A stretch of DNA of 63,270 nucleotides, filler included. It is 8 parts of 8 records of this genome, joined end to end, with 100 filler letters (N's around TTAATTAATTAA, not from the genome) between each part and the next. Parts side by side here need not be neighbours in the genome. Positions count along the whole stretch, not along the records: positions 5,620 to 10,973 come from SRR31156797_40405; 7 more parts are not named here. One strand, 5' to 3'. The stretch's first letter is position 1. The number at the start of each line of letters is the position of its first letter. The notes below the pieces were generated by a model that had not been told where the DNA came from, did no database searches, and saw nothing but the letters and a program-made list of their open reading frames with translations. The position numbers and the translations under genes were made by a program. Positions 1 through 25,916 of the stretch are shown one piece after another.

Positions 1-179
1 TGTAGTGCAAGTATTCGTAAATTTAATATCGAATTGTTTTTAAAAGATGATATTACACGTCCAAATTGGAAATGTAAAATCGATTTTAAAAATTGTGCGG
101 GTAAAATAACGGGCATAGGCGTATTATAGATACGTTGTTAGGGCTAATTAAAATTTACCATATTGAAAGGAATATAGAA

Positions 180-680
180 ATGAAATTTCGTTTAATCTAT
201 TTAATAACAATACTAATATTAGCAGGATGTTCTTCAATTGGAAGTTTATCCGGGAAATCATATAAGTATAAAAGCAAAAGGAGAATTCTAGAATTGAAAT
301 TTGAAAATGATAGTTTATGTACCTTAGAAAATACTTTTAAATGTAAAGACTTAAAACCTGAATTGCAGAAAATACTAATTAAATGCAAGTACAATAGAAT
401 TAATGACACCATTTTTATTCAAAACATTGAATGTGATGATAGTAATGTCAATTACGACATTGTAATTAATGTACCTACTCAAGAAAACTCAAAGTGTAAA
501 TTTTTAAATGAAAAGAATAGGAGAAGTGGTGAATTTCAAATAGGACCTTCTTATCAAACACAATATGAGAAACACGGACTAATTCCCAATATTGACTTGG
601 ATACTCTATATATTGTAAAGAATCATATTTTGCTTTTAAAACAGAATAAAAGGAGATCAATTGGGTTTATTTTCAAATAA
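180..680 (+). CDS. Hypothetical lipoprotein
   Basis: ATG at 180 gives MKFRLIYLITILILAGC, a signal peptide II with LAGC lipobox; no recognisable domain. Confidence 0.75.
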   Translation: MKFRLIYLITILILAGCSSIGSLSGKSYKYKSKRRILELKFENDSLCTLENTFKCKDLKPELQKILIKCKYNRINDTIFIQNIECDDSNVNYDIVINVPTQENSKCKFLNEKNRRSGEFQIGPSYQTQYEKHGLIPNIDLDTLYIVKNHILLLKQNKRRSIGFIFK

Positions 681-827
681 TGAGCTCTTGTTTTTACAGA
701 GAAATTCTAAGAGGAAGTTAAGATTAACTAGCACTAACAAAAGTTAAAATTAAAGAGCAACAAGTGTAATTCACCAGAAAATAAATACCTGATTGAATAA
801 ATGTTGATATATAATGTAAAAAATGTA

Positions 828-1592
828 ATGCCGAAATACATCACCATATGTATCTGTTTACTTTTATTTGCTTGCAACAATCGCGAAAATAAATTGCAGA
901 AAGTTGTTACTTATCATGAAAACGGAAAGATAAAATCTGAAAGTTTCAAATTAAATAATCAACGGCACGGTGAGTATAAAAGTTACTATACCAATGGTTG
1001 TCTGGAAGTCCGTGCTTATTTTAAAAAGGGAATACAAGATAGTATACAACAATATTATAACAAAGACGGAATAATAGAGCAAATATCACACTATAGAAAT
1101 GGGATTATTTGCGGAGAATTATTGGTATATGAAATGGGAAAATTATCATGTAAACAATCTTACATAATAAGAAATGATTCATCCTATTTAAATCAGTTTA
1201 TAAAATATACTGAAAATGGAAAAATAGATATTGGAACTAGTAATTACTTCTCATTACTTTCAATGAAAGACACAATTGAAATGGGAGAAGTATTTAGTGT
1301 AGATGTTAAACTAGAGGCATCCTATTTTAATATGAATATGATGGTCATTTTTGGTGATTTTGACAGCAATTATAAAAAATACACCTATTCAGACACATTG
1401 TCGGATAGAATGGATGAGAAAGTTGACTTCAAAGTGCATTATACAACTACTAAATATCACAAAGGAGAAAATATATTGAGAGGGATTATTCATGATTACA
1501 TTAGCTACTATGAGGATGAGTCAGAACAAAATATATTACATGATGTACGTACATTATTTTTTGAAATACCCTTTTATGTGAAAGCTAAATAA
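828..1592 (+). CDS. Lipoprotein with MORN-variant (YwqK-like) repeats
   Basis: MPKYITICICLLLFAC lipobox; repeats YHENGKIKSE, HGEYKSYYTNG, YYNKDG. Confidence 0.7.
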   Translation: MPKYITICICLLLFACNNRENKLQKVVTYHENGKIKSESFKLNNQRHGEYKSYYTNGCLEVRAYFKKGIQDSIQQYYNKDGIIEQISHYRNGIICGELLVYEMGKLSCKQSYIIRNDSSYLNQFIKYTENGKIDIGTSNYFSLLSMKDTIEMGEVFSVDVKLEASYFNMNMMVIFGDFDSNYKKYTYSDTLSDRMDEKVDFKVHYTTTKYHKGENILRGIIHDYISYYEDESEQNILHDVRTLFFEIPFYVKAK

Positions 1593-1707
1593 ATCTGAGG
1601 GAGTAATAAAAATTATTGGGAAGTTTTGATAAGACAGTAGTTGGATATCGCAAAAACAACATAGTAAGAACTGATTAGTTAATATATACGATTAAAAATC
1701 TTGTAAG

Positions 1708-3024
1708 ATGAAAAAGTTTCTTATCCTATTTATTTTGACAATCCCTTCTGTTTTATATGGACAAAAGGATGCTGCTCAACTTTTTGAACCGGCTTTGCTA
1801 AAAGCAGATATTGATACATTGATTTCTAAATTGAAGACATCTCATCCGACCTTTTCCCATTACTATCAAGAGAATAAATTAGAAAGTAAGATCGACAAGG
1901 TTAAAAAAACGATCGATACTCCTATGAGTGCTGCTGCTTTTTACCGGATGATGCAGCCCATAGTTTGTGTCGACGGACACACCTCTCTTCTTTATAATGG
2001 AGAGGTGTACCCTAACTATCCGAATCCCTTATTTCCATTTAAAATTGTCATATACGATCACACCATCTATATAAAAGAGAATCTTTCGGATCATAAATCA
2101 ATTTCAAAAGGGATGATTGTTGAAAAAATAAATGGTGTATCATCCAATGCTATCATTGATAATCTTACCAGATATGTGCCTGGCGAAAGAGATGTTTTTA
2201 AACTAAAAAAACTTGAAAAGAATTTTAACTACTATTATCAAATCGTATATGGAGCCTTTCCGGAATTTGACATTGTCGTAAATAAGAAAGAGTGGAAATG
2301 CAAAGGTGCAAATTGGTCGGATATTGAAGAAGCCAAAAAGCCAACTTTTGAATTGCGCTTTTACGATAAGAACATAGCCTATATTTGCAAACGGAAATTT
2401 TTCCCTCCTAATGAATTTATACATTTCATGGATTCTGCATTTCATGTGATTGCTGAAAAACCAATTGAATATTTAATAATAGATAATCTTATTGGTGGCG
2501 GACTAACTGATCTGTCGGATACTTTGATGACCTATTTTACTAATAAACCATTTTCTTCCTTCGAGAAAAAAGAAAGCAAAATAAGTTCTCTTACAAAGGA
2601 TTATGTCGATAGCAAAAAATCGAATGGATATCGTAAAGACGGCTATTTTATTCAGGAATTCCCAGCAAAAAGTCAAGATCGTAAGCATCGGTTCACAGGT
2701 ACCACATATATTTTAACAGGACCTTTATCCTACTCGGCTGCCACATGCTTTTCAGCCTCAGCCAAATGTTACAATACAGCGCTACTAGTTGGAGAAGAAT
2801 CGGGACAGCCTTTGCTAAGTAATGGTGGTATGGCTCATTTTATTTTGCCAACAACTAAAATGACTTGTGTTACATCTCTTGAAAGAGTGTATTTTCCATG
2901 CAATAATAAGGATACTATTAACGGAGTACAACCAGATTATGAGGTAGAACCCTCCTTAGATGATTTGTTAAATGATAAGAATTACAGTTTAGAGTATTTA
3001 TTGAAGATGATAAGAAAAAAATAA
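1708..3024 (+). CDS. S41 family (C-terminal processing-like) peptidase
   Basis: Signal peptide, D...HP, DGHT, PDZ-like KINGVS, SYSAA serine motif, VGEESG, GVQPDY. The usual DLRxNxGG reads DNLIGGG. Confidence 0.85.
   Translation: MKKFLILFILTIPSVLYGQKDAAQLFEPALLKADIDTLISKLKTSHPTFSHYYQENKLESKIDKVKKTIDTPMSAAAFYRMMQPIVCVDGHTSLLYNGEVYPNYPNPLFPFKIVIYDHTIYIKENLSDHKSISKGMIVEKINGVSSNAIIDNLTRYVPGERDVFKLKKLEKNFNYYYQIVYGAFPEFDIVVNKKEWKCKGANWSDIEEAKKPTFELRFYDKNIAYICKRKFFPPNEFIHFMDSAFHVIAEKPIEYLIIDNLIGGGLTDLSDTLMTYFTNKPFSSFEKKESKISSLTKDYVDSKKSNGYRKDGYFIQEFPAKSQDRKHRFTGTTYILTGPLSYSAATCFSASAKCYNTALLVGEESGQPLLSNGGMAHFILPTTKMTCVTSLERVYFPCNNKDTINGVQPDYEVEPSLDDLLNDKNYSLEYLLKMIRKK
2931..3024 (+). repeat. Direct repeat copy 1 (3' 94 bp of the S41 gene)
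   Basis: 83/94 nt identical to 3742-3835 by manual alignment. Confidence 0.9.
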
Positions 3025-3095
3025 ACGCAAACAGTTCTAAATAAGACGCTGATTATAAGGGTCTGTAATTTTTAAAAAAAACAGTTGTGTAACCA

Positions 3096-3734
3096 TTGAA
3101 TAAACACGAATCTATGACAAATAGGAGCAAAATAAAAACATTCTTTAACTCGAATAGGAAGGATTTTGAATACATCGAGGAATATAAAAAGAACAAGATT
3201 TTCTTTAATGACCTTTTACAAAACGGAAGACGGGAAGATATTGAATTTGTTCTCGAAATTAAAATATCCAACTATATCAGTCCTTTGAGTAGAGAAGGTT
3301 TTTACACAGAAGCATTAAAAGAACTAGAAGGAATCGAAATCTATTTAGAAAAGATAAGAACTCATTCAAAATTGTACAAACTTTATATTGAAGCATGTAT
3401 ATTTCAGCGAGGTTTATGTTTAGGCAGACTAAAAAGGTATAAAGAATCTAATATTGAATTTGAAAAATTATTAGAAAAACACCCAACTAATGATAATTAT
3501 ATTGACTGGTATAAAACGAATAAGAAAAAAAATCTTAACCGTTATTTTGAACTTGGAGCAATGATAAGTTTTGGAACATACTTACTTATTCTATTAATGG
3601 AATTTGTTAATAGCGAACTACATTTTCCGTCAAAAATAAAAGGTTATATTTTATTCATTGGAGCGACTTCAATTGTTTTGCCACATATCATTGACAAAAT
3701 TATCGATTCAGAAAAAATAGAGATGAATAAATAA
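3096..3734 (+). CDS. TPR-like protein with two C-terminal TM helices
   Basis: FQRGLCLGRLKRYKESNIEFEKLLEKHPTN TPR-like segment; hydrophobic C-terminus. Confidence 0.65.
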   Translation: MNKHESMTNRSKIKTFFNSNRKDFEYIEEYKKNKIFFNDLLQNGRREDIEFVLEIKISNYISPLSREGFYTEALKELEGIEIYLEKIRTHSKLYKLYIEACIFQRGLCLGRLKRYKESNIEFEKLLEKHPTNDNYIDWYKTNKKKNLNRYFELGAMISFGTYLLILLMEFVNSELHFPSKIKGYILFIGATSIVLPHIIDKIIDSEKIEMNK

Positions 3735-3741
3735 TCGTCAC

Positions 3742-3835
3742 ACCAGATTATAATGTAGAACCATCCGTAGTCGACTTGTTAAATGATAAGGATTACACTT
3801 TAGAGTATTTATTGAAGATGATACGAAAAAAGTAA
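3742..3835 (+). pseudogene. Orphan variant copy of the S41 peptidase C-terminus (direct repeat copy 2)
   Basis: Translates PDYNVEPSVVDLLNDKDYTLEYLLKMIRKK* versus PDYEVEPSLDDLLNDKNYSLEYLLKMIRKK*; no start codon. Confidence 0.85.
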
Positions 3836-3977
3836 AAAATGGATTCGAAGATATTATTCAAATTCAAATAGGAACAAAAAAGCATTTTTTAGGATTGCTT
3901 GCAAAAGTAGCAGAACTAGTTAGTAAACAACCAAAAGCTAACAAAAGTTAAAATTATTAGGCATTTCAATTATTAAT

Positions 3978-4775
3978 ATGAAACTATTACTAACATTTAT
4001 ACTAAGTGCAACTTTCTCGGTTCTTGTAGCTCAAGAAAGTGTTTTTAAAAAAATTGCAAGAGAAGATTCCTTGAAATTTCAAGAGTTTCTTCAATGTTTT
4101 GAGAAAAATGAAATTCCTACTTCGCTTTATAGCAAATTTTTCAGAAAAGAATACAATGAACATATTTCAAGTATCACTCCAAAATCAATTTTATGCAAGG
4201 CGAAGAATATTACCTTAATTGTTGAAGTGAATTGTCCTGCAGGTGGGTATTGCTCTACCTTCAGAATTGGGTGTTTTAAACCGAATGGAGACCTGATTCG
4301 CGAATTATCTCTAGGCTCTAACTCTTTAGATTTAATGGGGGGAGAAAATTGCGAGATTAACAAAGTAAGTAATAACTTGATTGAATCTACGAGCTTTGAA
4401 ACACAACTAAATGAAAGCATTGATGAGTACAAAATAGTAGGTGATATAGATTATGAATATTACTTCTATGATAGATATGGCTTTAAGAGAATTCAACCTA
4501 CTTACTCCCAAAACAGAATTTTTGCAATTTCCTCAAAAAAAGTACTTTCTGAACATGAATTAGAGACATACAATATTGAACAACTTGACATCATGCGAAA
4601 CGAAATATTTGCTGATTATTCTTACAAATTCAAAAGTGAAAAATGGCAGATTTATTTTAAATCTAAAAGTTGGTATGTACCCAAATATGATAATGTAAAT
4701 GATTTATTAACTGAGATTGAAAAGGTTAATTTGAAGCGAATTTTAAAAATCAAGAATAGAAAGACAAAACAATAA
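3978..4775 (+). CDS. Exported YARHG-domain protein
   Basis: Signal peptide; C-terminal LDIMRNEIFADYSYKFKSEKWQIYFKSKSWY...LTEIEKVN matches the YARHG pattern. Confidence 0.8.
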   Translation: MKLLLTFILSATFSVLVAQESVFKKIAREDSLKFQEFLQCFEKNEIPTSLYSKFFRKEYNEHISSITPKSILCKAKNITLIVEVNCPAGGYCSTFRIGCFKPNGDLIRELSLGSNSLDLMGGENCEINKVSNNLIESTSFETQLNESIDEYKIVGDIDYEYYFYDRYGFKRIQPTYSQNRIFAISSKKVLSEHELETYNIEQLDIMRNEIFADYSYKFKSEKWQIYFKSKSWYVPKYDNVNDLLTEIEKVNLKRILKIKNRKTKQ

Positions 4776-4822
4776 ATAGAAGATTGTAATTCTTTGTAAT
4801 ATATCATCCAAATAAAATAAGT

Positions 4823-5257
4823 ATGGAACTGTTAAATATTATGATTGGAACTTATGGCTTACAGCTTGCTCTTGTAATGCTATTGATAGTGATCTTAGTA
4901 GAAGTAGTATATATAAGTAAAAAGCTATTTCAACAATTCATCAATCTAAACGTAATTATTGCTGTTACCATTTCAAATAGTAGCAGTACTATTTTTGGCT
5001 TTTTAACTTTAGGTATTTTTTGGAGAGCCTTGATTGACTGGTCAATTGAAGCATTTACACTAGATATTGATCATTCTTCTGTATATTTTAAGATAGCCTT
5101 CTTTTTAATCGCATGGTTTTTAACGATTCTAATTGAAATTCCTATAAATACAATCTTCCTAAAATCTAAAAAAATAAGAAGCAGGATTTGGATTAACACC
5201 ATTTACGCCAATATTATAAGCTACTTGTTATTAATATTAGTGACAAAAGGAATTTAA
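4823..5257 (+). CDS. Hypothetical membrane protein (about 4 TM)
   Basis: Hydrophobic ORF with ILIEIP and ANIISY segments. Confidence 0.65.
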   Translation: MELLNIMIGTYGLQLALVMLLIVILVEVVYISKKLFQQFINLNVIIAVTISNSSSTIFGFLTLGIFWRALIDWSIEAFTLDIDHSSVYFKIAFFLIAWFLTILIEIPINTIFLKSKKIRSRIWINTIYANIISYLLLILVTKGI

Positions 5258-5519
5258 TACCTATAGCATGAGTTTAAAAATAAAAAAACAAGAAGGTAAT
5301 TCTATCATACCCCCACTACCACACCAAAAGATTAATTTCATCGAACTATGTTTCGTGCAACAATAAAAATGTTGATAGTATTTTCTTGGAGGATTTAAAG
5401 TAAGGTTTGGATTCTATAATAGGTATAGTTGTAGTGTATGGTGCTAACGAACTACATGTTTCACTGTTTTTATCCTCTAGCCAGATGGGCTCTTCCTTTT
5501 TGCATGGATCAAAAAGGAA

Positions 5520-5619: not shown

Positions 5620-5854
5620 AGGGCTTTTGTTTTTTGGTGGGGTAATAATAAGGGTAATAATAAATAATTTTAAAATTGTTTTAGATCGGAATTCAGTACT
5701 TGCTATTAATATTGACATCAAAAACTGAATTAACAATAATATTGTTTAGCAAAATTGGTTCACTCATTTCCTGAAAATACCGGCACGAATATCATAAACC
5801 CACACCGGCTTATCAGATTTATGGGAAACGTATTTTAAGTTATCAAGGAAAAAA

Positions 5855-5989
5855 TCAGGGTACGATTCTTACCATGCCGGATTTCCATTTTTCAGTAGCC
5901 ACACAAATAGTTTTGATCACAATGAATGCATATCCACCAGCGATAACCATTCCGGTAAGCAACATGATGATTGATAGATTCTTCTTCAT
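5855..5989 (-). CDS. 44-aa small membrane/secreted protein (not in ORF track)
   Basis: MKKNLSIIMLLTGMVIAGGYAFIVIKTICVATEKWKSGMVRIVP*; lies downstream of the promoter-like motif at 6074-6110. Confidence 0.5.
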   Translation of the reverse strand: MKKNLSIIMLLTGMVIAGGYAFIVIKTICVATEKWKSGMVRIVP

Positions 5990-6073
5990 TTGGTTTTGGT
6001 TTTTGATTTTGCAAATCAACATTAAATTATTATCTGTTGTTTTAGGTCACATAGCTTTGCCTTTATAGCTAGC

Positions 6074-6110
6074 TGTTCTTCAAAAAGGGATTTTGTCAGG
6101 GATTTTAACA
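6074..6110 (-). promoter_or_regulatory. Putative ECF promoter, copy A
   Basis: Minus strand TGTTAAAAT-ccc-TGACAAAA-N12-GAACA; same motif at 10652-10689. Confidence 0.6.
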
Positions 6111-6253
6111 CAAAAAAAAATCGGTATTTTTTTATCTCTCTGATATAGAAAACGAAACAAAAATCAAAACCTTAACAATTGTTAATAAACGTTAATGTAT
6201 TGTTGTGCTTTTCATATTAGAGGAACAATATTACAGTGGTTGATAGGATTAAT

Positions 6254-6261
6254 TAATTTTG
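6254..6261 (+). promoter_or_regulatory. Bacteroidota housekeeping -7 element
   Basis: TAATTTTG matches TAnnTTTG, 35 nt upstream of the sigma ATG. Confidence 0.4.
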
Positions 6262-6295
6262 GTGTTGCAAAATTGATACATCCTAAACAACAATA

Positions 6296-6844
6296 ATGAA
6301 AGCTGAAAATAGAAGACTCATTGAACTGCTGATTGCCGGCGATAATAATGCCGTCCGAAATTTCATGAACAAGCACAGGGACATAATAAAATCGTATGTA
6401 CTTTCCAATAGCGGAATCCTGGGTGATGCCGAGGATGTGCTACAAGAAGGTTTTTTAAGATTCATGCTTAGAATTAAAACACTGGAAATCCACACCGTAA
6501 AAAACCTGGATGGTTATTTTATTACGATTTGTAAAAATGTTTGGCTAAAATATCTGCTCTACAAGAAAAACCAGAAAAAATATGTTGACACGGTAAAAGA
6601 GACGAAAATTGTAGAAAATGAAAGCGCCCAGGACCAGGAGGCCAAATTTGAGGAGAAAAAGGAACTTGTTATGCGGATGATGAGTAAACTTCCCGAGGAG
6701 TGTCAGCAGATACTCCTTATGCGAATGTATGGATACACCTATAAGGCGATTTTAACTATGGTGAAGCATGAAACGGTAGGAACGGTAAGAAACCAAAGCT
6801 ATGAATGTATTAAAGAATTAAGAAAACTGATAAAACGCAAATAG
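6296..6844 (+). CDS. ECF-type sigma-70 factor
   Basis: DAEDVLQEG, YFITICKNVW region 2; LPEECQQILLM..YGYTYKAI...TVRNQSYECIKELRK region 4. Confidence 0.92.
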   Translation: MKAENRRLIELLIAGDNNAVRNFMNKHRDIIKSYVLSNSGILGDAEDVLQEGFLRFMLRIKTLEIHTVKNLDGYFITICKNVWLKYLLYKKNQKKYVDTVKETKIVENESAQDQEAKFEEKKELVMRMMSKLPEECQQILLMRMYGYTYKAILTMVKHETVGTVRNQSYECIKELRKLIKRK

Positions 6845-6847
6845 AAA

Positions 6848-7627
6848 ATGCAAAAAAATACAACAGATCAGATCATTGCTTACCTCAACGGTGAGTTGAC
6901 CAGCAAAGAATCAGCACAGCTGAAAGAAAAAATTGCTGCGGACCAATCTGTGGCAGAAGAATTTCAAATGTTAAAAAGCCTGCACCAGTCGGCTCATGAC
7001 GAAGATTTCCTGGACCAACTTTTTGCCCTAAGGATGGAAAATAAACAAAAAAGTCGACATGGTTCCAATCCGGAAATTAGACCATATGCCAGTCGCGATA
7101 ATGTAAGGATTATCAGGTATCTTATTTATATTGCTGCGGCTGTGACCGTTTTAATGCTTGTGTATTTCATAACAGGCCAGGATAATGAAAACCATACACC
7201 AGAATCCCTGTTTGTAAAATACTACATCGGCTACGACCAGATTGTGGAGATGCGTTCGGGAGAAGATACCACCGGGAGGTTTGCCAACGGCATGAAGCTC
7301 TATAGCAGCGGCAACTGGGAGGGAGCCATTCATTCACTGAACCAGGCCCGCCAGAATTTTGAACTTACGGCGGCATTTTACATCGGGATGTGTTACCTGG
7401 AGCTTCAGGAGTATGCCAAAGCTGAAGCACAATTCCACCGGGTAATTGATCATTCAGGCGATTTCAGGCAGGAGGCGCAATGGTACCTTGCTTTAACCTT
7501 GTTGGCAGATAAAAAAGTTGAACAATCCGAAAAGCTTTTACAGGCCATTGTGAATCAGAAAAATCATTATTTTCGGGAGAAAGCTCAAAACCTAATGAAT
7601 GACCTGAAAAGTACCGAACCCGAATAG
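6848..7627 (+). CDS. Putative membrane anti-sigma factor with extracytoplasmic TPR domain
   Basis: 3 nt after the sigma gene; N-terminal IIAYLNGEL anti-sigma-like helix, TM (YLIYIAAAVTVLMLVYFIT), TPRs (FYIGMCYLE, AQWYLALTLL). Confidence 0.8.
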   Translation: MQKNTTDQIIAYLNGELTSKESAQLKEKIAADQSVAEEFQMLKSLHQSAHDEDFLDQLFALRMENKQKSRHGSNPEIRPYASRDNVRIIRYLIYIAAAVTVLMLVYFITGQDNENHTPESLFVKYYIGYDQIVEMRSGEDTTGRFANGMKLYSSGNWEGAIHSLNQARQNFELTAAFYIGMCYLELQEYAKAEAQFHRVIDHSGDFRQEAQWYLALTLLADKKVEQSEKLLQAIVNQKNHYFREKAQNLMNDLKSTEPE

Positions 7628-7678
7628 ATCAATAAAGTATTGAAATTCTCCCGTTGCCTGCTACCCTCAATATCATAT

Positions 7679-10603
7679 TCAGTTCTTTTTCATCTGATTT
7701 CGTCGAATAATGAGAAACATCAGGATAATCAGCATTGCAAAAACCAGAACAACTTTAAAATAAGCGTTGGGGTTTGGTGGAACCCCGATCGCTGATTGGT
7801 CTCCAACCACGGTAAGCCCGGCCCAGTATTTCGGATGGGTTTTGCCGGGCATAACAGTTTTCAGGAATTCAAGTTTGGCTGCTCTGAGTGATTGGTTTTT
7901 AGGCATCCCTTCCCTGAGGCCGGTATAAAAGGATGTTATGATTGTTCTTGCCGCTGCATCGTCAATGGGAAACAGGGAAATACCCACACTTTTGCATCCG
8001 GCATACCTGAACGCCCAGCCCAGGCTGATCACGCCTTCGCCATCCAGTATCAATCCATTACCTGAGCTGCATGCACTCAACATCACTAAATCAGCCTGCA
8101 TATCGCTGCAGCAAATCTCAGAGGTAAGAAAGGGCTCGTAGATGTTTTCTGCAGTATCGCCGGCAAGCATCAGGCCTGTATTGAACATCCCGGTGGTGTC
8201 TGTTCGGGTATGTGTAGCAAAATGAATTACCGAGGCTTTTTCCAGGTAAGGCTCAAGGCGGGTTTTTGTTGCCTGGCTTCCAGAAAGCAATTTCCCGCTG
8301 AACAAATCAGCCAGATATGCTGCTTCCCCGCCGGCCTCTACGATGGAACTCAAGTTATCCCGTACATGGGCAGCAGCACCAGTAAAATCAGGTGCTACTG
8401 CCACGAAATATTGGTTGCCCGTATCATCCGGCTGTATTTTCTCCCTGTCCGGATAGAGGGAGTGATGATAGCTGAACGTAAAATCATACAGCAGGTAGGG
8501 CAATTCCCGGTATGGCGTTCTAGGATCGGGCTTACTGCTCAGCAAAGCCTCAAAGGGCAGCAGGTTTAATTCACGGTCAGGCACCAGGATCAATTCCTTA
8601 ATTCCGCGCAATCCGAAAGTATCGCCCAACAATGTTTCCGTTAGTGTAGTTGCATGACTGAGATATGCTGTTTTAGCACTGGGATTGCTCTCCGTTGGAT
8701 TACAAAACGCCACCACCTGTCCCGCCATCTCCCTTACCTGATTTGCATTTTCGTTTCTCACCCAGTAAACCGAATCCGGGGTAAGCTGAACAATATGTAG
8801 CACGGTATCTTCCAGAAAGTAGCTGCAGAGCATTTGTCCTTCCATTATCCCGGACTTGATCTTCTCGTACGTCAGCATCTTAAATTGCCTGTCGATGGTT
8901 TCGGGATATTGCTGAAGAATAATATTTCTAACGGAGTCTTTTTGCAGGATCAACTTAAATAGTTGATCTTTCAGTCGCGCTGTTTCTGTGGTATTACCCA
9001 CATCCTCTTTTTGCTTGATTTCTGTGTGAAGGCTGTTGATCCGGTTAACCAGGGACGTGTTAAGCCGGGACAGCGTAACGGGTAGTTTTGCAGTCTGGTC
9101 CCGGGACGACATCATACTTTTCACCAGGAGGTATTTACCGGTTTCAGAAAACTGAAGTGCCTTTTCCAGGTAATAGGTATCATGGCGATCCTGGTAAAGT
9201 GCGTGGGCGGCATCCATTCCTGCCAGCATATATTTCCGGATTTCCTTTTTTAATACCGCCAGGCGATCCTGCATAAAAGTTTTGTTGTGAAGCCTGGCTT
9301 CCACACAATGGCCGTAGTAGTCGCAATTGGCCACAATCAGGCGGTTGACGGACTGCAATGAATCCCGGCTCAAAGGCTGTTGCTTTATAGCAATGAGCGA
9401 TTCCAGCTTGCGACTCATGATTTCGGGCAACCGCTTATCGGCATTAAAAACATCTGAAGGGTTGGTAGCATAATCCAATGTGTCAACCTCTTTGGTATTG
9501 CAATACAGTGCCCGCTGAAAATAGTACAGCGATGAATCGTATTTCTGGTATTTGTGGTAGGTTCGGCCAATGACCCAGTAATTGGTTAGTACCACTTTAT
9601 GATAATCACCATACTTAGCTTTATTCAATGTAAAGCCATGCTTATATTTTTGTAATGCCTTCTGATAATCTCTTTGACTATTCTCATAATAATTACCAAA
9701 ATTATTTAAGTGGTAAATATATGCCATGGTGTCCAATTCACTCAGGTTTAAATTACTAAAACTTCGCTCATCAAGTGTATATTCACCAATCTGATCATAG
9801 CAATAGTTTAAAACATTATTAATGTAAGACTCGAAAGCATTTCGGTCACTGGTCATATATTGCATTGCCTTATTAAAATGAATCACAACCTGTTGCCAAT
9901 CTCTCAAGGCATAATAAACCCGTCCAATATTATAGTTAAAATTAAACAGCCACCATCGATTTTTATTGGTCGAATTTTTCACACAATTAAGTCCTTCATT
10001 ACCATACAATATTGCCTTTTCAAAATCTCCTCTCTCCTGGTAGAATTGAATGAGATTTTGATACATATAGAGTATTGATTCGGAAGGATATTCAGTATCG
10101 TTTCTCTCAAGATCTAATGTTTTTAAAAAGTAATATTCAGCACTATCATAAAATTGCTTCGCTTCGTAATATTGCCCGATTGCGAGAAATAATCTTGCTT
10201 CATGCTCACTTTCATAGCTATGGTTTAATCTATTTGCCAGATTCAGATAATATATTGTGCTATCGATTTCTCTAAGACTTCGCCATGCATTCCCAATATT
10301 TATGGATATATCTATTAAATTAGAGGTGTCTGAGAATGAAAGCCCATAGAATATCCTCTGGTAAATTTGGAGAGAGCTATCATAGTTGCCTAAATAGTGA
10401 TAACAATTTCCCCTTCGTTTCAATAATTCGAAATCAAAACTAGAAGTTTCTTCAGTATTTAATAAGTCCAATGCACTCTGGTAATATTTCCGATCATAAT
10501 AATGATTAAAACTATCAATAACAGAGATATTCTGAGAATGTGCTATTGGGGCAATCAACCCAATAAGCACTTTAATTATCATTATGTGCCTGTATTTCAA
10601 CAT
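7679..10603 (-). CDS. Exported/membrane-anchored TPR-CHAT (caspase-like) protease
   Basis: Signal peptide MLKYRHIMIIKVLIGLIAPIAHSQ from 10603 (TAnnTTTG at 10615-10622); TPRs; LILVPD..L..LPFEAL; catalytic IHFATH and VMLSACSSG; HPKYWAG; C-terminal TM. Confidence 0.92.
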   Translation of the reverse strand: MLKYRHIMIIKVLIGLIAPIAHSQNISVIDSFNHYYDRKYYQSALDLLNTEETSSFDFELLKRRGNCYHYLGNYDSSLQIYQRIFYGLSFSDTSNLIDISINIGNAWRSLREIDSTIYYLNLANRLNHSYESEHEARLFLAIGQYYEAKQFYDSAEYYFLKTLDLERNDTEYPSESILYMYQNLIQFYQERGDFEKAILYGNEGLNCVKNSTNKNRWWLFNFNYNIGRVYYALRDWQQVVIHFNKAMQYMTSDRNAFESYINNVLNYCYDQIGEYTLDERSFSNLNLSELDTMAYIYHLNNFGNYYENSQRDYQKALQKYKHGFTLNKAKYGDYHKVVLTNYWVIGRTYHKYQKYDSSLYYFQRALYCNTKEVDTLDYATNPSDVFNADKRLPEIMSRKLESLIAIKQQPLSRDSLQSVNRLIVANCDYYGHCVEARLHNKTFMQDRLAVLKKEIRKYMLAGMDAAHALYQDRHDTYYLEKALQFSETGKYLLVKSMMSSRDQTAKLPVTLSRLNTSLVNRINSLHTEIKQKEDVGNTTETARLKDQLFKLILQKDSVRNIILQQYPETIDRQFKMLTYEKIKSGIMEGQMLCSYFLEDTVLHIVQLTPDSVYWVRNENANQVREMAGQVVAFCNPTESNPSAKTAYLSHATTLTETLLGDTFGLRGIKELILVPDRELNLLPFEALLSSKPDPRTPYRELPYLLYDFTFSYHHSLYPDREKIQPDDTGNQYFVAVAPDFTGAAAHVRDNLSSIVEAGGEAAYLADLFSGKLLSGSQATKTRLEPYLEKASVIHFATHTRTDTTGMFNTGLMLAGDTAENIYEPFLTSEICCSDMQADLVMLSACSSGNGLILDGEGVISLGWAFRYAGCKSVGISLFPIDDAAARTIITSFYTGLREGMPKNQSLRAAKLEFLKTVMPGKTHPKYWAGLTVVGDQSAIGVPPNPNAYFKVVLVFAMLIILMFLIIRRNQMKKN

Positions 10604-10651
10604 GTTTAATGCGTCAAAAATAATCTTTCTTCCTGGTTTTCCAAAAAAAAA

Positions 10652-10689
10652 TGTTAAAATTTCATGACAAAACCAACCCTTCCGGAACA
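10652..10689 (+). promoter_or_regulatory. Putative ECF promoter, copy B
   Basis: TGTTAAAAT-ttca-TGACAAAA-N12-GAACA, ending 55 nt upstream of the peptide ATG. Confidence 0.6.
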
Positions 10690-10744
10690 ATAGTGCAAAG
10701 ACGTCTTTGAAAACACATTTATTCATTTAAAAAAAAGAAAAATT

Positions 10745-10885
10745 ATGAAAGAGGAATTTTCAACCAACGAACCGGAAGCATTGAACGAAGCACTCATGAA
10801 ACAATTATTTGGTGGAGATGGAGGTGATCCGCCATCTGACCCTCCACCAGATCCACCACCACCACCCGATGACAACAATGGCTGA
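10745..10885 (+). CDS. 46-aa double-glycine-leader precursor peptide (not in ORF track)
   Basis: MKEEFSTNEPEALNEALMKQLFGG|DGGDPPSDPPPDPPPPPDDNNG*; hydrophobic residues at -12, -7, -4 plus GG; followed directly by a C39 gene. Confidence 0.85.
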   Translation: MKEEFSTNEPEALNEALMKQLFGGDGGDPPSDPPPDPPPPPDDNNG

Positions 10886-10916
10886 TTTTATGTATTAGGA
10901 TAATCAAACTGTAAGA

Positions 10917-10973
10917 ATGGAAATATCACACCTCCAACACGACAAAAAAGACTGCGGCCCTGCCTGTCTGCAA
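10917..10973 (+). CDS. N-terminus of a C39 peptidase / peptidase-containing ABC transporter (truncated by contig end)
   Basis: MEISHLQHDKKDCGPACLQ contains the Q-x4-DCGPACL catalytic motif. Confidence 0.85.
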
Positions 10974-11073: not shown

Positions 11074-13438
11074 GAACAAACCCTATAAAAAATCCGCCCG
11101 TATTGTCGGTGATGTCATCGGTAAGTATCACCCCCATGGTGATACCGCCGTGTACGATACCATCGTCCGCATGGCCCAGGATTTTTCCATGCGTTACACC
11201 CTTGTGGACGGCCAGGGCAACTTCGGTTCCGTGGACGGCGATTCTCCCGCCGCCATGAGGTATACCGAGGTCCGGATGAAGAAGATTGCCCATCAGATGC
11301 TGGCCGATCTCGAAAAAGAGACCGTGGACTGGATTCCCAACTACGATGAAACCCTGAGTGAACCGTCGGTGCTTCCGACCAAGTTTCCCGCCCTTCTGGT
11401 GAACGGTTCCTCCGGTATTGCCGTGGGTATGACCACCAACATTCCACCCCACAACGTCGGGGAGGTCGTCCAGGGACTGATCGCCCTTCTGGACAACCCC
11501 AACATCACCATCCCGGAACTGATGGAGCACATTCCCGGGCCTGATTTCCCCACCCATGGCCTGATATACGGCACAAAGGGAATCTATGACGCCTACACCA
11601 CCGGCCGGGGCATCATCTCCGTCCGGGCAAAGGTGGATGTGGAGGTGAATTCCAAGACAAAGGCCGAGACCATCATTGTGAGCGAGCTTCCCTACCAGGT
11701 GAACAAGGCGAAGCTTGTGGAGAAGATCGCCGAGCTCATGCGGGCAAAGGTGATCGAGGGTGCTTCCTTTGTCAGGGACGAGTCGGACCGCCAGGGTATG
11801 CGGATCGCCATCGGCCTCAAGCGGGACCAGATCGCCGAGGTGGTGATCAACCAGCTTTATAAGCATACCAACATGCACACAAGCTTCGGCATCATCTTTC
11901 TTGCCGTTGTCAATAACCGTCCCGAGCTGTTTACGCTCAAGGAACTCCTGGAGCATTTCATCAATCACAGGCGCTCGGTGATCATCCGGCGGACCCTGTT
12001 TGATCAGAAAAAGGCCCAGGAAAGGGCCCATATCCTGGAGGGGCTGATCAAGGCCCTGGATAACCTGGACGCTGTCGTGTCCCTGATCCGGGCCTCCCGG
12101 TCCCCTGAAGAGGCAAAGACCGGACTTGTTGAGAACTTCGAGCTCACCCCCGTACAGGCCCAGGCCATCCTTGAGATGCGCCTCCAGCGGCTTACCGGGC
12201 TTGAGCGGGACAAGATCAACGAGGAGTACGCCCAGCTGTTGAAGGATCTTGCCTGGTACAAGGAGATCCTTGAGAGCGACGAAGTGGTCAAGGGAATCAT
12301 CAAGGAGGAGCTGAACGAGCTCGTCGATGAGTACCAGGATTCCCGCCGGACGGAGATCGTCGAGGCCACGGGAGAGATCGGCATCGAAGACCTGATCGCG
12401 GAAGAGGATATGGTGGTCACCGTGACCCGAAGCGGCTATATCAAGCGAAACCCGGTTACCCTGTATGCCAGCCAGCACAGGGGAGGGAAGGGCAAGACCG
12501 CCATGGGTACCAAGGATGAGGATTTTGTGGAGCATCTGTTCGTTGCCTCCACCCATCACACCTTTCTTTTTATCACCAATTTCGGCAAGGTATACCAGTC
12601 CAAGGTGTACCAGCTTCCCATGGCCGGCAGGACCAGCCTTGGCAAGGCCATTGTCAACCTGCTCAACTTTGACGAGGGGGAAAAGCTCGCCACGGTGCTC
12701 ACGGTTCCCGAATTTGTGGACGGCAAATACGTGGTCATGGCCACCAAGCTCGGCCGGGTCAAGAAGACAGACCTCATGGCCTACTCACGTCCCCGGTCCG
12801 GCGGCCTCATCGGTATCAAGCTGGCCGAGGAGGACGAGCTGATCGCGGCCGGCATCACCGACGGAGATACGGATATATTCCTTGGCAGCGAAGGCGGCAA
12901 GGTGATCCGGTTCCACGAGAGTGATGTCCGGACAACGGCCAGGGGCTCCATGGGGGTCAGGGGCATGCGCATCGATGCCGGTTCCGCAGTGGTCGGCATG
13001 GAGGTCCAGAACCACGGTCACACCCTTTTGACCGTCACCGAAAACGGATACGGAAAACGAACCAACATCGAGGAGTACCGGACCCAGACCAGGGGAGGGA
13101 AGGGGGTTTTCTCCATCCGCACCTCCGAGAGGAACGGTAAGATGGTTTCCCTTCTGCTTGTGGGGGACGAGGATGAACTCATGCTGGTCACGGACAAGGG
13201 CAAGCTTATCCGGACCGGTTGCCGGGACATTTCGGTCATTAGCCGTAACACCCAGGGCGTGAGGCTCATCAACCTGGGCAACGGTGAACAACTCATCGCC
13301 GCGGCAAGGCTGCCCGAGGACGAGGATGACGACGAGACGCTGGACGCGTCCGATGCGTCTGACACGTCCGAAGAGGCCCAAGCCGTTGACCATGGGGAGG
13401 GCCATGAACCAGAAGAAAACGAAGGAGCACAAGGGTAA
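11074..13438 (+). CDS. gyrA: DNA gyrase subunit A (5' truncated)
   Basis: [26 protein letters not shown] catalytic Tyr, GyrA-box QHRGGKG, beta-pinwheel repeats, acidic tail. Confidence 0.97.
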
Positions 13439-14132
13439 AGGGCACCGGAAACGGCTGAGACAGCGGTTTATGGAGGGCGGTCTTGGGGGGTTCCATGATT
13501 ACGAAGTGATCGAACTCCTCCTGACCCTGTACACCCCGAGACAGGATTGCAAAGATAGGGCAAAAGCGCTGCTGAAGCGATTCAAGACCCTCCAGGGGGT
13601 ATTTGAAGCAAGTGTGGAGGAGCTGACCCGGGTGAAAGGGGTCGGCCCCACCAATGTCCTTGGCATCCGGCTCATCAAGGAGGCCAGCGACCGGTATCTT
13701 GAAAAGCGGATCCTTGCAAAGAGCGTTCTGAATAACTCCGGGGATCTTCGTTCCTTTCTCGACCAGTTCATCGGCCACAGGCACCGGGAGGTGTTTGTCT
13801 GTATCTTCCTGGATGCAAAGAACCGGGTGCTGGCAAGCGAAATCCTGTTCCAGGGGAGCCTCACCTCCTCAGCCGTCTATCCCCGGGAGGTCGTCGCCAG
13901 GGCCCTGGACCACAGGGCGGCGGCCCTGATCTTTGCCCACAACCATCCTTCGGGCGATACCTTGCCTTCGGGGGAGGACATCGCCATCACCAAGCGGCTG
14001 TTCTTTGCCCTGGCCCATGTGGGGATCACCGTGCATGAGCACGTCATCACCGGGGCTGAGAGCTTCTACAGCTTTGCGGACAAGGGCATCATTGCCGAAT
14101 TCAAAAGGGAGTTTGACATTCAACATGGATAA
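13404..14132 (+). CDS. radC: RadC / JAB-domain protein
   Basis: [24 protein letters not shown]...PS.ED; RBS GGGGAGG before 13404. Confidence 0.92.
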
Positions 14133-14388
14133 CGATACAAGCGAACGGCCGGACTGTTTCGGAGAGCTTGAAAAGGTGTTTCCCATGGGCGATCGGGGAT
14201 TGCGGGAGACGCCGGACGACTGCATGTACCACTGCCCCTGCAAGACCGCCTGCCTTCGGGCTGCCATGGACGGGGCCAGGGGGGTAAAGGTGCAGGAGGA
14301 ACTCGTTGAGCGGGGAGAGGAGGCAGGCATGCTGACCTTTTTCCAGCGGTGGTCCAGGAAGAAACAGCTGGCAAGAAAACGATCCTGA
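14125..14388 (+). CDS. Small Cys-rich hypothetical protein
   Basis: PDCFGELEKVFPMG..GLRETP..C...C..KT.CLR; overlaps the radC stop. Confidence 0.7.
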   Translation: MDNDTSERPDCFGELEKVFPMGDRGLRETPDDCMYHCPCKTACLRAAMDGARGVKVQEELVERGEEAGMLTFFQRWSRKKQLARKRS

Positions 14389-14508
14389 CCCGGAAGGGTA
14401 CACTCTTGTGTTTACTTTGTTTCGGGTTGGAAGTAGTATAAAACATTACCGGGGGCCCGCAACCCCGGGCATAACCATAATATCTGGCGGGATGATCCGG
14501 AGAAGCAT

Positions 14509-15690
14509 ATGAAAACGGTAAGAGATATTGAGCTGAACGGCAAGGCGATTCTGGTGCGGGTGGATTACAACCTGCCCATGGACGATGACCTGAACATTGC
14601 CGATGACAACAGGATCAGGGCAACCCTTCCCCTGATCCAGTACCTTATGGACAAGGGCGGGAAGATCATCCTTGCCTCCCACATGGGAAGGCCCAAGGGG
14701 AAAAGAGTGCCGGGCCTGAGCCTTGCGCCGGCCGCAAAACGGCTTTCCGAGCTGTTGGCCCGACCCGTGGGATTCGTGGACGATTGCCTGGGTCCCGTGG
14801 TGGAAGAACGGGTGGCATCCCTTACCCCGGGGGAAATCCTTTTGCTTGAAAACCTCCGGTTCTATAATGAAGAGACCGCCAATGACAGGGACTTTGCAAA
14901 AAAGCTTGCTTCCCTGTGTGATGTTTATGTCAACAACGCCTTTTCCGTCAGCCACAGGGAGCAGGCGTCGGTGGTGGCCGTCACGGAGTTCACTGCCCAG
15001 GCCTGTGCCGGTTTTTTACTGGAAAAAGAGGTGAAATGCTTTCGGGACTCGGTTGAATCCCCATCGCGGCCGTTGGTGGCCATTGTCGGCGGGGCCAAGG
15101 TCTCAAGCAAGCTCGGCGCCCTTAAAAACATGCTCAAGTATGTTGACCGTCTCATCATCGGCGGCGCCATGGCCAACACCTTTCTCAAGGCCCGGGGGAT
15201 CGATACCGGCGCCTCCATGATCGAAGCGGATCTGGTTGGAACCGCGGCCGGCATTATTGATGAAGCAAAGGAGCGGGGGGTAGACCTTCTTCTTCCCGTG
15301 GACCTGGTGGTGGCCGACCGGTTCGATGCCGCTGCCGAAACACGGGAGGTGAGCGTTGACGCCATTCCCGGCACATGGATGGGACTTGATATCGGGCCTG
15401 AAACCGGTGCCCGGTTTGCCAAAGCCCTGAAAGACGCCGGTACCATCGTCTGGAACGGTCCCATGGGGGTGTTCGAGATGGAACGGTTCTGTGGGGGCAC
15501 AAAGACGGTGGCCGATGCCGTGGCCGCTTCCAGCGCCTTTTCCGTGGTGGGCGGCGGGGATACCGGCCTTGCGGTCAAGGTGTGCCGGGTGGCCGATAAA
15601 ATGAGCTATATTTCAACCGGCGGCGGCGCCTTTCTCCACCTGATGGAGGGACGTGAGCTTCCAGGGGTAGCCGTGCTTAAAGGGAGGTAA
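14509..15690 (+). CDS. pgk: Phosphoglycerate kinase
   Basis: RVDYNLP, SHMGRP, LLENLRF, GGAKVSSK, WNGPMG, STGGGA. Confidence 0.97.
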   Translation: MKTVRDIELNGKAILVRVDYNLPMDDDLNIADDNRIRATLPLIQYLMDKGGKIILASHMGRPKGKRVPGLSLAPAAKRLSELLARPVGFVDDCLGPVVEERVASLTPGEILLLENLRFYNEETANDRDFAKKLASLCDVYVNNAFSVSHREQASVVAVTEFTAQACAGFLLEKEVKCFRDSVESPSRPLVAIVGGAKVSSKLGALKNMLKYVDRLIIGGAMANTFLKARGIDTGASMIEADLVGTAAGIIDEAKERGVDLLLPVDLVVADRFDAAAETREVSVDAIPGTWMGLDIGPETGARFAKALKDAGTIVWNGPMGVFEMERFCGGTKTVADAVAASSAFSVVGGGDTGLAVKVCRVADKMSYISTGGGAFLHLMEGRELPGVAVLKGR

Positions 15691-15695
15691 CAGGA

Positions 15696-16760
15696 GTGGG
15701 GATGTTCTGCAGCACAAGAAACCGGCTGAGTCGAAAGGATAAGCTGAGGCGCTCCTATTACGAGCTGCTCCGGGATGAGATGGATCAGTTTGTCCTTGGT
15801 TACGCCCTGATCGACTCTTATAACAATTTTTTGCGGCAGAAGACCCCCTATCCCTTCGTGGAGACCCGGGAACTCAAACCCCGGGCCCGGATCCCCTCCA
15901 TCGAGTTTGATGCCCAGAATTCGTTCCTGGTGCTCTTCTGTGAGGAGTTTGTGGATGAGAGCCACAAAAAGTACATCCGCTACTTTGACGCCAACAAGAC
16001 CACAAAGACCAACCTGGTGAAGCACAAGCACTTTCCCGATGTGGAGGAGTATCACAGGAATCTCAAATACATCGATACCGACGGGTTCTTTGATTTCATG
16101 AAAACCCTGCTCCCGGTGGACTACGCCCTGTTGATCCAGCGGGATGTCCGCGCCGGCACCCAGGACAGGTACGCCCTGACCCATTTCCATGTGCGTATTG
16201 ACTGGCCCATTGCCGACGCGGCCGAGGAGCTTGGACGGGATCTTCGCTATATCTCCAAGGATCTCTACGAGAAGGGGGATAAATATGCCGAAAATTTCCA
16301 GAAGAAGTTTTTCGAGTACTACGGCATGCCGGTGATGGCAGGAGGCCGGAGAACGGCCGCCATTGTGGCTGCCCAGTACTTCAGGAAGCTTGACGGAATC
16401 ACTACGGTATACGTGGGAAGCAGCGAGTCAAGGGCCCTGTTGCGGATCGATGAAAACAGCATCTCCAAGTCGATCCTGGTGAAATTTACCCGGGACGAGG
16501 TGAGGGAGATCTCAAAATCCGCAAACATTACCCAGACCAGCTTTACCAAGAATTATGTGGTTGCCAGGGAGGGAAAGTACCTGGTCTGCATATTCAATGT
16601 CATTTATGCCTATACCCCCCATGCCCTGCCGTCGGAGGGAGGGCGGCTCAGGGAGCTGAAATTCGATACCAACTGGCTCACCGTGTCCGAGGAGCAGATC
16701 CTGCCCAAGCCCACGGTGTGGAAGTATCCCCCCATCCCATTTAAGATTATCTACGCTTGA
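15696..16760 (+). CDS. Hypothetical protein
   Basis: 354-aa ORF with RBS, directly downstream of pgk; no motif recognised. Confidence 0.75.
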   Translation: MGMFCSTRNRLSRKDKLRRSYYELLRDEMDQFVLGYALIDSYNNFLRQKTPYPFVETRELKPRARIPSIEFDAQNSFLVLFCEEFVDESHKKYIRYFDANKTTKTNLVKHKHFPDVEEYHRNLKYIDTDGFFDFMKTLLPVDYALLIQRDVRAGTQDRYALTHFHVRIDWPIADAAEELGRDLRYISKDLYEKGDKYAENFQKKFFEYYGMPVMAGGRRTAAIVAAQYFRKLDGITTVYVGSSESRALLRIDENSISKSILVKFTRDEVREISKSANITQTSFTKNYVVAREGKYLVCIFNVIYAYTPHALPSEGGRLRELKFDTNWLTVSEEQILPKPTVWKYPPIPFKIIYA

Positions 16761-23186: not shown

Positions 23187-23254
23187 GTTTACCTCTCGAA
23201 TTTGATGGTTCCCTCTTGCTGAAATTCAAGCATGGGTTGGCATTTATCGTAAAT

Positions 23255-24415: not shown

Positions 24416-24416
24416 G

Positions 24417-24629: not shown

Positions 24630-24650
24630 CTAAAAATAACCTTTCGGTGT

Positions 24651-25904: not shown

Positions 25905-25916
25905 TTCTGCCTCCAA

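Follow-up and report, generated by a model that had tools for sequence, protein, structure and literature searches.

The stretch of DNA analysed here, which is 63,270 nucleotides (nt) long and is called the window throughout, contains an open reading frame (ORF) of 46 codons that comparison with related sequences shows to be a genuine gene; it encodes the precursor of a small peptide with a double-glycine leader and an acidic, proline-rich core. The gene lies with four others on a contig 5354 bp long (positions 5620-10973 of the window), and the constant partner of the peptide is a TPR-CHAT caspase-like protease, not an exporter. The first-pass annotation of this DNA, made from the sequence letters alone, had paired the peptide with a gene for a C39 peptidase. 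Such a gene indeed adjoins it, but the neighbour that stays constant is the divergently oriented TPR-CHAT gene, which comes with a sigma/anti-sigma pair. The gene neighbourhoods and the analogy to known systems suggest that the peptide may be an exported signal which TPR domains in the periplasm perceive, and that the read-out may consist of the CHAT protease together with the pair of anti-sigma factor and extracytoplasmic function (ECF) sigma factor, and we give this reading about an even chance.

The precursor gene and its peptide family

Translation of the ORF gives 46 amino acids (aa), namely the leader MKEEFSTNEPEALNEALMKQLFGG followed by the core DGGDPPSDPPPDPPPPPDDNNG, and ends with a TGA stop at 10883-10885. 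The consensus of double-glycine leaders has hydrophobic residues at positions -4, -7, -12 and -15, and the leader found here agrees with it at three of them (Leu -4, Met -7, Leu -12), whereas position -15 is occupied by Pro. The core comprises 10 Pro (45%) and 6 Asp, lacks Cys, Lys, Arg and Tyr, carries a net charge of roughly -6 and is devoid of any amphipathic or cationic stretch. The first-pass annotation had described a double-glycine leader and an acidic polyproline core without Cys or cationic residues, and both descriptions proved correct. The Gly-Gly, on whose presence in homologous leaders it had relied, is invariant in 28 of the 28 aligned family members; at least 90% of these retain Met at -7 and at least 70% retain Leu at -12, and most of their cores start with Asp-Gly. 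In our numbering the window peptide is P0001, L-numbers designate loci of relatives and G-numbers designate genomes.

A word-indexed search of 5.8 billion proteins returned eight candidates, two of which are 46-aa homologues with 89% and 83% identity that keep the leader, the Gly-Gly and the Asp/Pro core. A profile search against 1.84 billion cluster representatives gave six matches with E ≤ 0.001, of which four are small double-glycine peptides of the same layout with quite different leaders, and when the search was iterated from the alignment of 28 sequences, 91 proteins with lengths of 36-58 aa out of 3116 candidates reached E ≤ 0.001. The profile matches P0004 (4124 aa) and P0006 (312 aa, internally repetitive) were rejected, as they are not small peptides. 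P0006 contains about five repeats, the units of which resemble the leader part of the window peptide (KEEF.TNPPETINEAV...; E 3.9e-5 with the first profile).

When homologous genes from different genomes were compared in five pairs, the nucleotide differences at codon positions 1/2/3 were 6/5/9, 12/12/32, 6/4/25, 15/6/22 and 10/7/25, so that the third position carries most of the differences in all five. One-base insertions or deletions (indels) near the ORF occur in the contigs of relatives at 10643 and at 10729, both outside the ORF. Furthermore, the prolines are encoded by a mixture of CCA, CCG, CCT and CCC, and the ORF is therefore not a simple DNA repeat. One might still regard it as a chance ORF within a divergent promoter region between the CHAT and C39 genes, since it is short, of low complexity and unannotated, and since the promoter-like matches in the region, 4 against 2.0 ± 1.6 in shuffled sequences, show no enrichment. 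This explanation is contradicted by the mixed proline codons, by homologues that keep frame and invariant Gly-Gly, by a family of 91 members, by the bias towards the third codon position and by indels that lie only outside the ORF, and because of the last four of these we take the ORF to be a genuine precursor gene and a chance origin to be so improbable that it hardly needs to be considered further.

The family cores, of which 98 were listed, are 12-25 aa long, acidic and mostly Pro-rich; nearly all begin with Asp-Gly, and 97 of the 98 are free of Cys. They fall into subfamilies with conserved tails, for example ...PPPPVKTGTEEDIIL and ...PPPPVKI, whereas the window type ends in ...DPPSDPPPDPPPPPDDNNG. 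Within the subfamilies the cores are strongly conserved, and they differ between paralogous modules of the same genome. In the source records the members are named "hypothetical protein" and twice "natural product precursor" (records of the Joint Genome Institute, JGI), and all organism names given are those of metagenome-assembled genomes of Bacteroidales, Bacteroidia, Bacteroidetes or Bacteroidota. None of the Pfam models matched P0001 at E ≤ 1. The only NCBIfam match was to RaxX_RiPP (NF038382), a model for a peptide that is made on the ribosome and then post-translationally modified (RiPP), with 14.9 bits (E 0.026) and thus under the cut-off of 40, and the same model is touched weakly by 5 of 11 family members (best E 0.013). 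The precursor model TIGR04149 did not match P0001 at E ≤ 1 either, and in other members it matches the leader part only, with 26.4 bits for P0014 followed by 24.0 and 23.8 bits for P0042 and P0018, against a cut-off of 25. Tyr was sought in P0001, P0002 and P0003 and is found in none of them. A comparison with the Protein Atlas gave best scores of 0.80-0.85, among them a ComC-family cluster with 0.82; all are below 0.9 and serve as a lead only.

Nine genes of the family are broken in frame. Each starts with the ATG and some ten codons in a first frame and continues in a second one, which holds the remaining leader and the core, and the two frames are joined at a run of seven to nine A (A7-A9) that encodes Lys-Lys within the leader and is absent from the window gene. 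In seven of them a -1 shift is needed (L025:7917-8078, L026:7992-8135, L027:7921-8076, L028:7980-8123, L031:4796-4951, L022:373-519 and L043:5589-5740) and in two a +1 shift (L037:7957-8115 and a second gene in L026, 11998-12150). None of the 13 in-frame family genes examined has an A-run longer than six. Homopolymer errors of the assembly were considered as the cause of the frame breaks and rejected, as 86 of the 150 A/T runs of at least seven in the same loci are located inside intact ORFs of at least 200 aa. The downstream frames of the frame-broken genes evolve as coding sequence, and among the called proteins P0022 is an in-frame relative of one frame-broken type. The frame breaks suggest that the peptide gene may undergo programmed slippage or be phase-variable.

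Linkage to the TPR-CHAT protease, the sigma module and the exporters

The profile of the peptide family was run against 401 genomes of one order, which was chosen as the order of the genome with L001, a locus from the species-representative genomes where a 44-aa family peptide is divergent from a TPR + CHAT gene. Matches with E ≤ 0.01 were obtained in 16 genomes at 21 places. Fourteen regions, representing 16 of these places and containing 93 ORFs, were analysed with Pfam, and in all 14 a gene with a CHAT domain is located directly beside the peptide gene. These neighbours mostly encode TPR + CHAT proteins of 765-1113 aa and, like that of the window, are usually divergent; L035 has its CHAT gene broken into several ORFs. 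L001 shows the arrangement as well, and at the four places left the contigs are only 1.6-2.9 kb long and end before the CHAT part, and the adjoining ORF matches the N-terminal TPR part of the profile built from full-length proteins with E values from 2.5e-92 to 6.7e-15. Overall, a TPR-CHAT or TPR-CHAT-like gene flanks the peptide at 21 of 21 places. Because CHAT genes are so few, namely 19 in five genomes with one to six in each, a chance adjacency of peptide and CHAT gene is excluded. Viewed from the side of the CHAT genes, 10 of the 19 adjoin a family peptide.

The protease of the window matches the CHAT domain with E 5.8e-47 at residues 693-976 in addition to TPR_12 and TPR_2, and has a C-terminal transmembrane (TM) helix at residues 989-1007. 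As the profile of its family aligns only from residue 40 onwards, the true start is probably Met42 or Met49 (10603 or 10582). All 23 homologues that were aligned share the dyad His839/Cys886, and for this reason the TPR-CHAT proteins should be active proteases. A C-terminal TM helix is present in all of 14 TPR-CHAT proteins, and an N-terminal hydrophobic segment lies above threshold in 8 of the 14. In the window protease and others below the threshold, a shorter signal-like stretch can be recognized by eye (MIIKVLIGLIAPIAHSQ after Met49). With a signal-like segment at the N-terminus and an anchor at the C-terminus, most of the TPR-CHAT protein would be periplasmic.

When samples of 400 further genomes each were searched, matches with E ≤ 0.001 were found in three genomes at the level of the phylum and in two at the level of the class. 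G443, which occurs in both samples, is a false match inside a frame of 489 aa and not a small peptide. The low number of matches in the wider samples indicates that the family is concentrated in one order. In the two phylum-level cases that were looked at, the partner is not a CHAT protein. In L053 (8079-10490) a family-like peptide stands beside a gene for a kinase with TPR, HisKA and HATPase_c domains, and in L054 (6321-8449) two tandem peptide genes stand beside a gene for a TPR + AraC-type regulator, with C39-ABC and HlyD genes near. Both the kinase and the AraC-type partner have a signal peptide, then the TPR part and then a TM helix. In the case found at class level, a TPR ORF adjoins the peptide on a short locus. 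Common to the partners is a TPR domain predicted to be periplasmic; the output domain varies between CHAT, histidine kinase and AraC.

Downstream of the peptide gene, the next ATG at 10917, 31 nt past the stop, opens MEISHLQHDKKDCGPACLQ, and the frame ends with the contig at 10973. When the 25-aa frame at the contig end was compared with 24,736 Pfam models, Peptidase_C39 alone was matched (profile positions 6-19, E 0.057, 13.7 bits against a cut-off of 22), and the shortness of the fragment makes this a weak match; a search of the PDB sequences with the same frame gave no match. A DCGP(A/T)CL motif like the DCGPACL of the window stands at the N-terminus of seven full-length C39-ABC proteins encoded near family peptides, and the N-terminus LQKDRKDCGPACLQ of the exporter of L032 is nearly identical to LQHDKKDCGPACLQ of the window. 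The truncated gene is thus probably a peptidase-containing ABC transporter (PCAT), to go by these alignments. The first-pass annotation had placed a gene with C39 motif 31 nt after the stop and had made its case depend on that gene being a PCAT; the distance and the motif are as it stated, and syntenic relatives have at this position a full gene with C39, ABC_membrane and ABC_tran domains. Such genes of about 730 aa are located within about 5 kb of the peptide in 5 of the 14 first regions (L024, L026, L032, L033 and L035), further full exporters are near the peptide in L038, L039 and L054, and the exporters mostly have an HlyD-type neighbour. HlyD_3 lies over the Pfam threshold in L032 and L033, and in L026 and L035 this position is taken by ORFs of 415-435 aa without a passing match. 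L026, L038 and L039 have CHAT, peptide and exporter genes in the very order of the window, and those genomes that have no exporter adjoining the peptide contain one to three C39 genes elsewhere. Between the peptide ORF and the C39 start no terminator-like site was found by a promoter/terminator scan that was otherwise uninformative. In L001 (4599-5507), a secreted protease of the papain family (Peptidase_C1) and a stand-alone receiver-domain gene follow the peptide where the exporter would be.

The sigma gene of the contig scores 59.2 bits with the sigma70-ECF model TIGR02937 (cut-off 42.9) and 33.2 bits with Sigma70_r2 (cut-off 24). The protein encoded next to it matches TPR_16, TPR_2 and TPR_6 over their cut-offs at residues 147-202, has a TM helix at 92-110, and shows only a weak match to the "antisigma" model NF052375 (E 0.017). 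From its position and topology we infer that this 259-aa protein is an anti-sigma factor, with its N-terminal part in the cytoplasm and its C-terminal TPR domain in the periplasm. When the window proteins were used as phmmer queries, the anti-sigma-like TPR protein was found in 15 of 17 peptide-bearing loci and a homologue of the sigma factor in 9 of the 17; several of the loci without a sigma match have a gene of about 190 aa at the sigma position whose divergence is too great for a match. Three loci contain HisKA and/or LytTR genes. The word GGAACAATA occurs in three copies in the window against 0.69 expected, two of the three being upstream of the sigma and the peptide gene, and it is the only word of at least nine letters that is common to these two upstream regions. 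A GGAAC...CGTC pair upstream of the peptide was considered as an ECF-type promoter and set aside, as its spacing of 13 nt does not fit that of ECF promoters, and no claim is made for it. In L001 (3085-3125), L029, L030, L032 and L033, though not in the window, a conserved element GCGGA(A/T)NC(C/T)GAAAAGCT...A(A/G)AGTAGG precedes the peptide ATG by about 25-60 nt, which could be a promoter for the sigma factor of the module or an RNA element.

Proposed function and competing explanations

The series of events that we propose starts with the export of the peptide. The C39 domain of the adjacent transporter would remove the leader after Gly24 and the 22-aa core would be exported, a step that is well supported and that we hold to be highly probable. 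The core is presumably unmodified, because no tailoring enzyme is encoded in the contig or in 107 (93 + 14) neighbouring ORFs of relatives; no Radical_SAM, sulfotransferase, lanthipeptide enzyme or immunity-like gene came up there, and the contig has no gene for a small membrane protein. Judged from the gene neighbourhoods, the peptide would then act not as a toxin but as the ligand of a periplasmic TPR domain, either that of the TPR-CHAT protease or that of the anti-sigma-like protein or both. By analogy to DdvA-DdvS and to craspase, both of which are treated below, ligand binding would switch the CHAT protease, the protease would clip the periplasmic part of the anti-sigma-like protein in the role of a site-1 protease, and the ECF sigma factor would be set free. 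The even chance given above applies to export, ligand binding and this release of the sigma factor as a whole. As a last step, for which the hint is weak, the sigma factor might drive its own gene as well as the operon of peptide and exporter and so close an autoinduction loop; the word GGAACAATA gives a faint indication of a common sigma-dependent promoter and hence of such feedback. It is a bolder and more tentative proposal, which we consider somewhat less probable than the signalling reading as such, that the whole forms a pheromone circuit of undescribed kind in uncultured Bacteroidota, in which a TPR-CHAT protease reads, with its TPR part in the periplasm, an unmodified acidic polyproline peptide exported by a PCAT, clips a TPR anti-sigma factor and frees an ECF sigma factor, and in which one branch is gated by the A7-A9 frame break through slippage or phase variation. 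The suggestion of the first-pass annotation that the peptide is a signal or protease ligand rather than a bacteriocin is in agreement with the comparative evidence, which stops short of proving it.

Several observations weigh against an exported signal of this kind. Nine of the 19 CHAT genes are without a family peptide detectable by a regular-expression screen, which means that CHAT proteases do not all need one. In the window the exporter gene is truncated, its ABC part lying beyond the contig end, and among relatives an exporter is adjacent in no more than 5 of the 14 first regions. TPR domains are not known as classic binders of polyproline. The evidence from GGAACAATA is weak, as by our estimate two regions of 150 nt share some 9-mer by chance in about 1 of 10 cases, and when the sigma and peptide upstream regions of nine other loci were compared, no convincing common word was found, which is partly due to the sigma start codons having been set crudely in these loci. 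Moreover, the tight linkage fits the peptide as an output of the sigma module as well as it fits an input.

According to the output explanation, the module would sense some other envelope cue and control peptide and exporter, and the peptide would have a job of its own, such as binding of metal, a role at the surface or in the matrix, or an action on other organisms. The same linkage data are compatible with it, GGAACAATA is upstream of both the sigma and the peptide gene, and DdvA-DdvS governs output genes that are unrelated (PMC11506125). Yet the partner of the peptide keeps its periplasmic TPR domain while the output domain varies, which is easier to explain if TPR recognises the peptide, and the cores are conserved within subfamilies but differ between the modules of one genome, as would be the case for matched pairs of signal and receptor. 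We therefore regard a pure output role as rather unlikely, though it is the strongest competitor, and in an autoinduction loop both the input and the output reading would be true. It might also be that the peptide occupies the active site of the CHAT protease, either as a securin-like inhibitor whose polyproline stretch would keep it from being cut or as a substrate that is cut after its Asp-Gly-Asp/Gly-Asp head, and that the TPR domain is not bound at all. The constant tie to a protease with intact His/Cys dyad and the start of nearly all cores with Asp-Gly-x-Asp/Glu followed by prolines speak in favour of such a substrate or pseudosubstrate, as does separase, likewise a protease of the TPR-CHAT type, which is held by its inhibitor securin (PMC11506125). 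Peptides of the same family, however, adjoin TPR proteins that have no CHAT domain, and we judge this role improbable. Even less can be said for an antimicrobial or a tailored RiPP, be it a class II bacteriocin, a radical-SAM product of the TIGR04149 type or a sulfated peptide like RaxX. The leader and the exporter are of bacteriocin type, P0014 exceeds the TIGR04149 cut-off, RaxX_RiPP is matched weakly and two members bear the name "natural product precursor", but the core is anionic and free of Cys, Tyr and any cationic or amphipathic stretch, P0001 itself lacks a TIGR04149 match and stays far below the RaxX cut-off, and neither tailoring nor immunity-like genes accompany the peptide, all of which makes this explanation very unlikely. 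Among these explanations, it is the exported ligand of periplasmic TPR domains that we prefer.

Relation to known systems and layout of the contig

The peptide resembles the known PCAT substrates, i.e., ComC-type pheromones, class II bacteriocins and RaxX of the RaxX/RaxB system, in its double-glycine leader, in the gene with C39 motif directly downstream and in the HlyD-type partner found in relatives. It differs from them in its anionic core with 45% Pro and without Cys and Tyr, and in having a TPR-CHAT protease as constant partner. Class II bacteriocins have a core that is cationic, amphipathic or hydrophobic and in many cases contains Cys pairs, and an immunity gene accompanies them. In contrast to peptide-pheromone systems, the contig contains no pair of histidine kinase and response regulator. 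The window peptide is like RaxX in being Pro-rich and in that it would be a ligand and not a toxin; unlike RaxX, however, it has no Tyr in the core that could be sulfated, and there is no sulfotransferase among the four other genes of the contig. With the "GG-Bacteroidales" precursors of TIGR04149 the family shares the leader style ...EM..i[RK]GG of Bacteroidota, but the loci scanned contain no radical-SAM maturase and the cores are unrelated. A further likeness is that to the RRNPP systems of quorum sensing in Gram-positive bacteria, such as NprR, as in both cases TPR would sense a short, self-made and exported peptide. RRNPP receptors are cytoplasmic and need re-import of the peptide, whereas the TPR domains considered here would be periplasmic and have as output a protease, a kinase or a regulator bound to the membrane. 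In its TPR part, the protease family profile matches the solved protein NprR (4gpk) with E 8e-14, and it matches many unrelated TPR proteins too.

For the sigma module, the closest comparison is DdvA-DdvS of Myxococcus xanthus, which consists of an ECF sigma factor and a transmembrane anti-sigma factor fused to a periplasmic TPR-CHAT part, for which CHAT-driven proteolysis is proposed and the trigger is not known (PMC11506125). The same paper describes periplasmic TPR-CHAT proteins as a widespread class of which little is known, and the passages used place DdvA-like proteins in Myxococcota and one Comamonas only and do not mention a linked peptide gene or exporter (PMC11506125). The present module is similar in that an ECF sigma factor, a single-pass protein of anti-sigma type and a periplasmic TPR-CHAT protein with His/Cys dyad are encoded together. 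It differs in that DdvA is one fused chain, whereas here the TPR-CHAT protein is separate, with a signal peptide of its own and an anchor at the C-terminus, and the anti-sigma-like protein carries no more than a small TPR part. Craspase of the type III-E CRISPR systems comprises the TPR-CHAT protein Csx29 with Csx30 and an RpoE-type sigma factor and targets putative anti-sigma factors (PMC11506125; 10.1101/2022.08.22.504715). Both cases have in common a TPR-CHAT protease whose activation would lead to the cleavage of a protein of anti-sigma type. In contrast to craspase, which is cytoplasmic and responds to target RNA bound to gRAMP, the system of the window would be periplasmic, no CRISPR genes are present, and the candidate trigger is a peptide. 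A published description of the peptide family, or of a tie between it and TPR-CHAT or sigma genes, was not found in searches of 8.1 million PMC papers and 0.36 million preprints, as judged by the titles and abstract openings of the matches. We describe the peptide module as a variant of known PCAT substrates combined with ECF sigma control by proteolysis, and it is not yet a proven new system.

If the signalling reading is true, the peptides would be the first class of ligands for periplasmic TPR-CHAT sensors and as such a concrete ligand that can be tested. They would also represent cell-cell signalling by peptides in Bacteroidota, with export in the style of Gram-positive bacteria and a proteolytic, quorum-sensing-like read-out. 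To our knowledge, peptide signalling is essentially unknown in this Gram-negative phylum. Being only 12-25 aa long and, to all appearance, without modification, the peptides can be synthesized, and the differing cores of the modules within one genome should allow specificity to be mapped. For annotation, at least 91 tiny genes that are now called "hypothetical" or are not called at all would gain a family and a context.

The features of the locus contig are given in Table 1.

Table 1. Features of the contig with the peptide gene; positions are those of the window
Feature	Position	Strand	Evidence or remark
GGAACAATA word, possible -35-like element (weak evidence)	6222..6230	+	74 nt before sigma ATG
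ECF-type sigma-70 factor (182 aa)	6296..6844	+	TIGR02937, Sigma70_r2
Anti-sigma-like single-pass membrane protein (259 aa)	6848..7627	+	TPR_16, TPR_2, TPR_6
TPR-CHAT caspase-like protease (ORF of 1015 aa)	7679..10726	-	CHAT, TPR_12, TPR_2; divergent from peptide gene
GGAACAATA word	10684..10692	+	61 nt before peptide ATG
Peptide precursor ORF (46 codons)	10745..10885	+	translation; family profile
Double-glycine leader, 24 aa (MKEEFSTNEPEALNEALMKQLFGG)	10745..10816	+	
Core peptide, 22 aa (DGGDPPSDPPPDPPPPPDDNNG), and TGA stop	10817..10885	+	
C39 peptidase-type gene, first 19 codons, cut by contig end	10917..10973	+	C39 motif, weak Pfam match

The window itself consists of eight short contigs joined by seven spacers of the form N...TTAATTAATTAA...N, and the neighbouring contigs are no context for the locus. 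The spacers are located at 5564, 11018, 16936, 29670, 34896, 50320 and 57993. The G+C content ranges from 27% (1-5500) to 59% (12000-16000), and the pieces may not all share one organism.

Contigs of four public runs were aligned to the stretch, and that of the probable source run consists of exactly these 5354 bp. The contig of a second run stops within 3 nt of the same end point, and one contig from a sediment run reaches 236 nt further. Some of the runs carrying the stretch are labelled as sediment metagenome, from which label no habitat is claimed. In the probable source run, positions 10944-10973, i.e., the codons for DCGPACLQ, lie on a 33-nt unitig with a depth of 817 against 361 for the contig, and this repeated word at the contig end accounts for the stop of the assembler at 10973. 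The organism probably has at least two genes that share this N-terminal C39 word. A search for relatives with the CHAT protein gave 19 pattern matches in genome contigs and 45 in metagenome contigs, and a search with the peptide alignment gave 410 in metagenome contigs, of which none was confirmed in any of the three cases.

Elsewhere in the window, a second TPR ORF (34907-37354, minus strand) matches the family profile in the TPR part only and has no peptide adjoining it. On another contig, genes for a phage-type integrase, an RtcB ligase, a cytidine/dCMP deaminase and a C-5 DNA methylase are clustered at 21785-28847, which may be a mobile or defence-related patch that is unrelated to the peptide locus.

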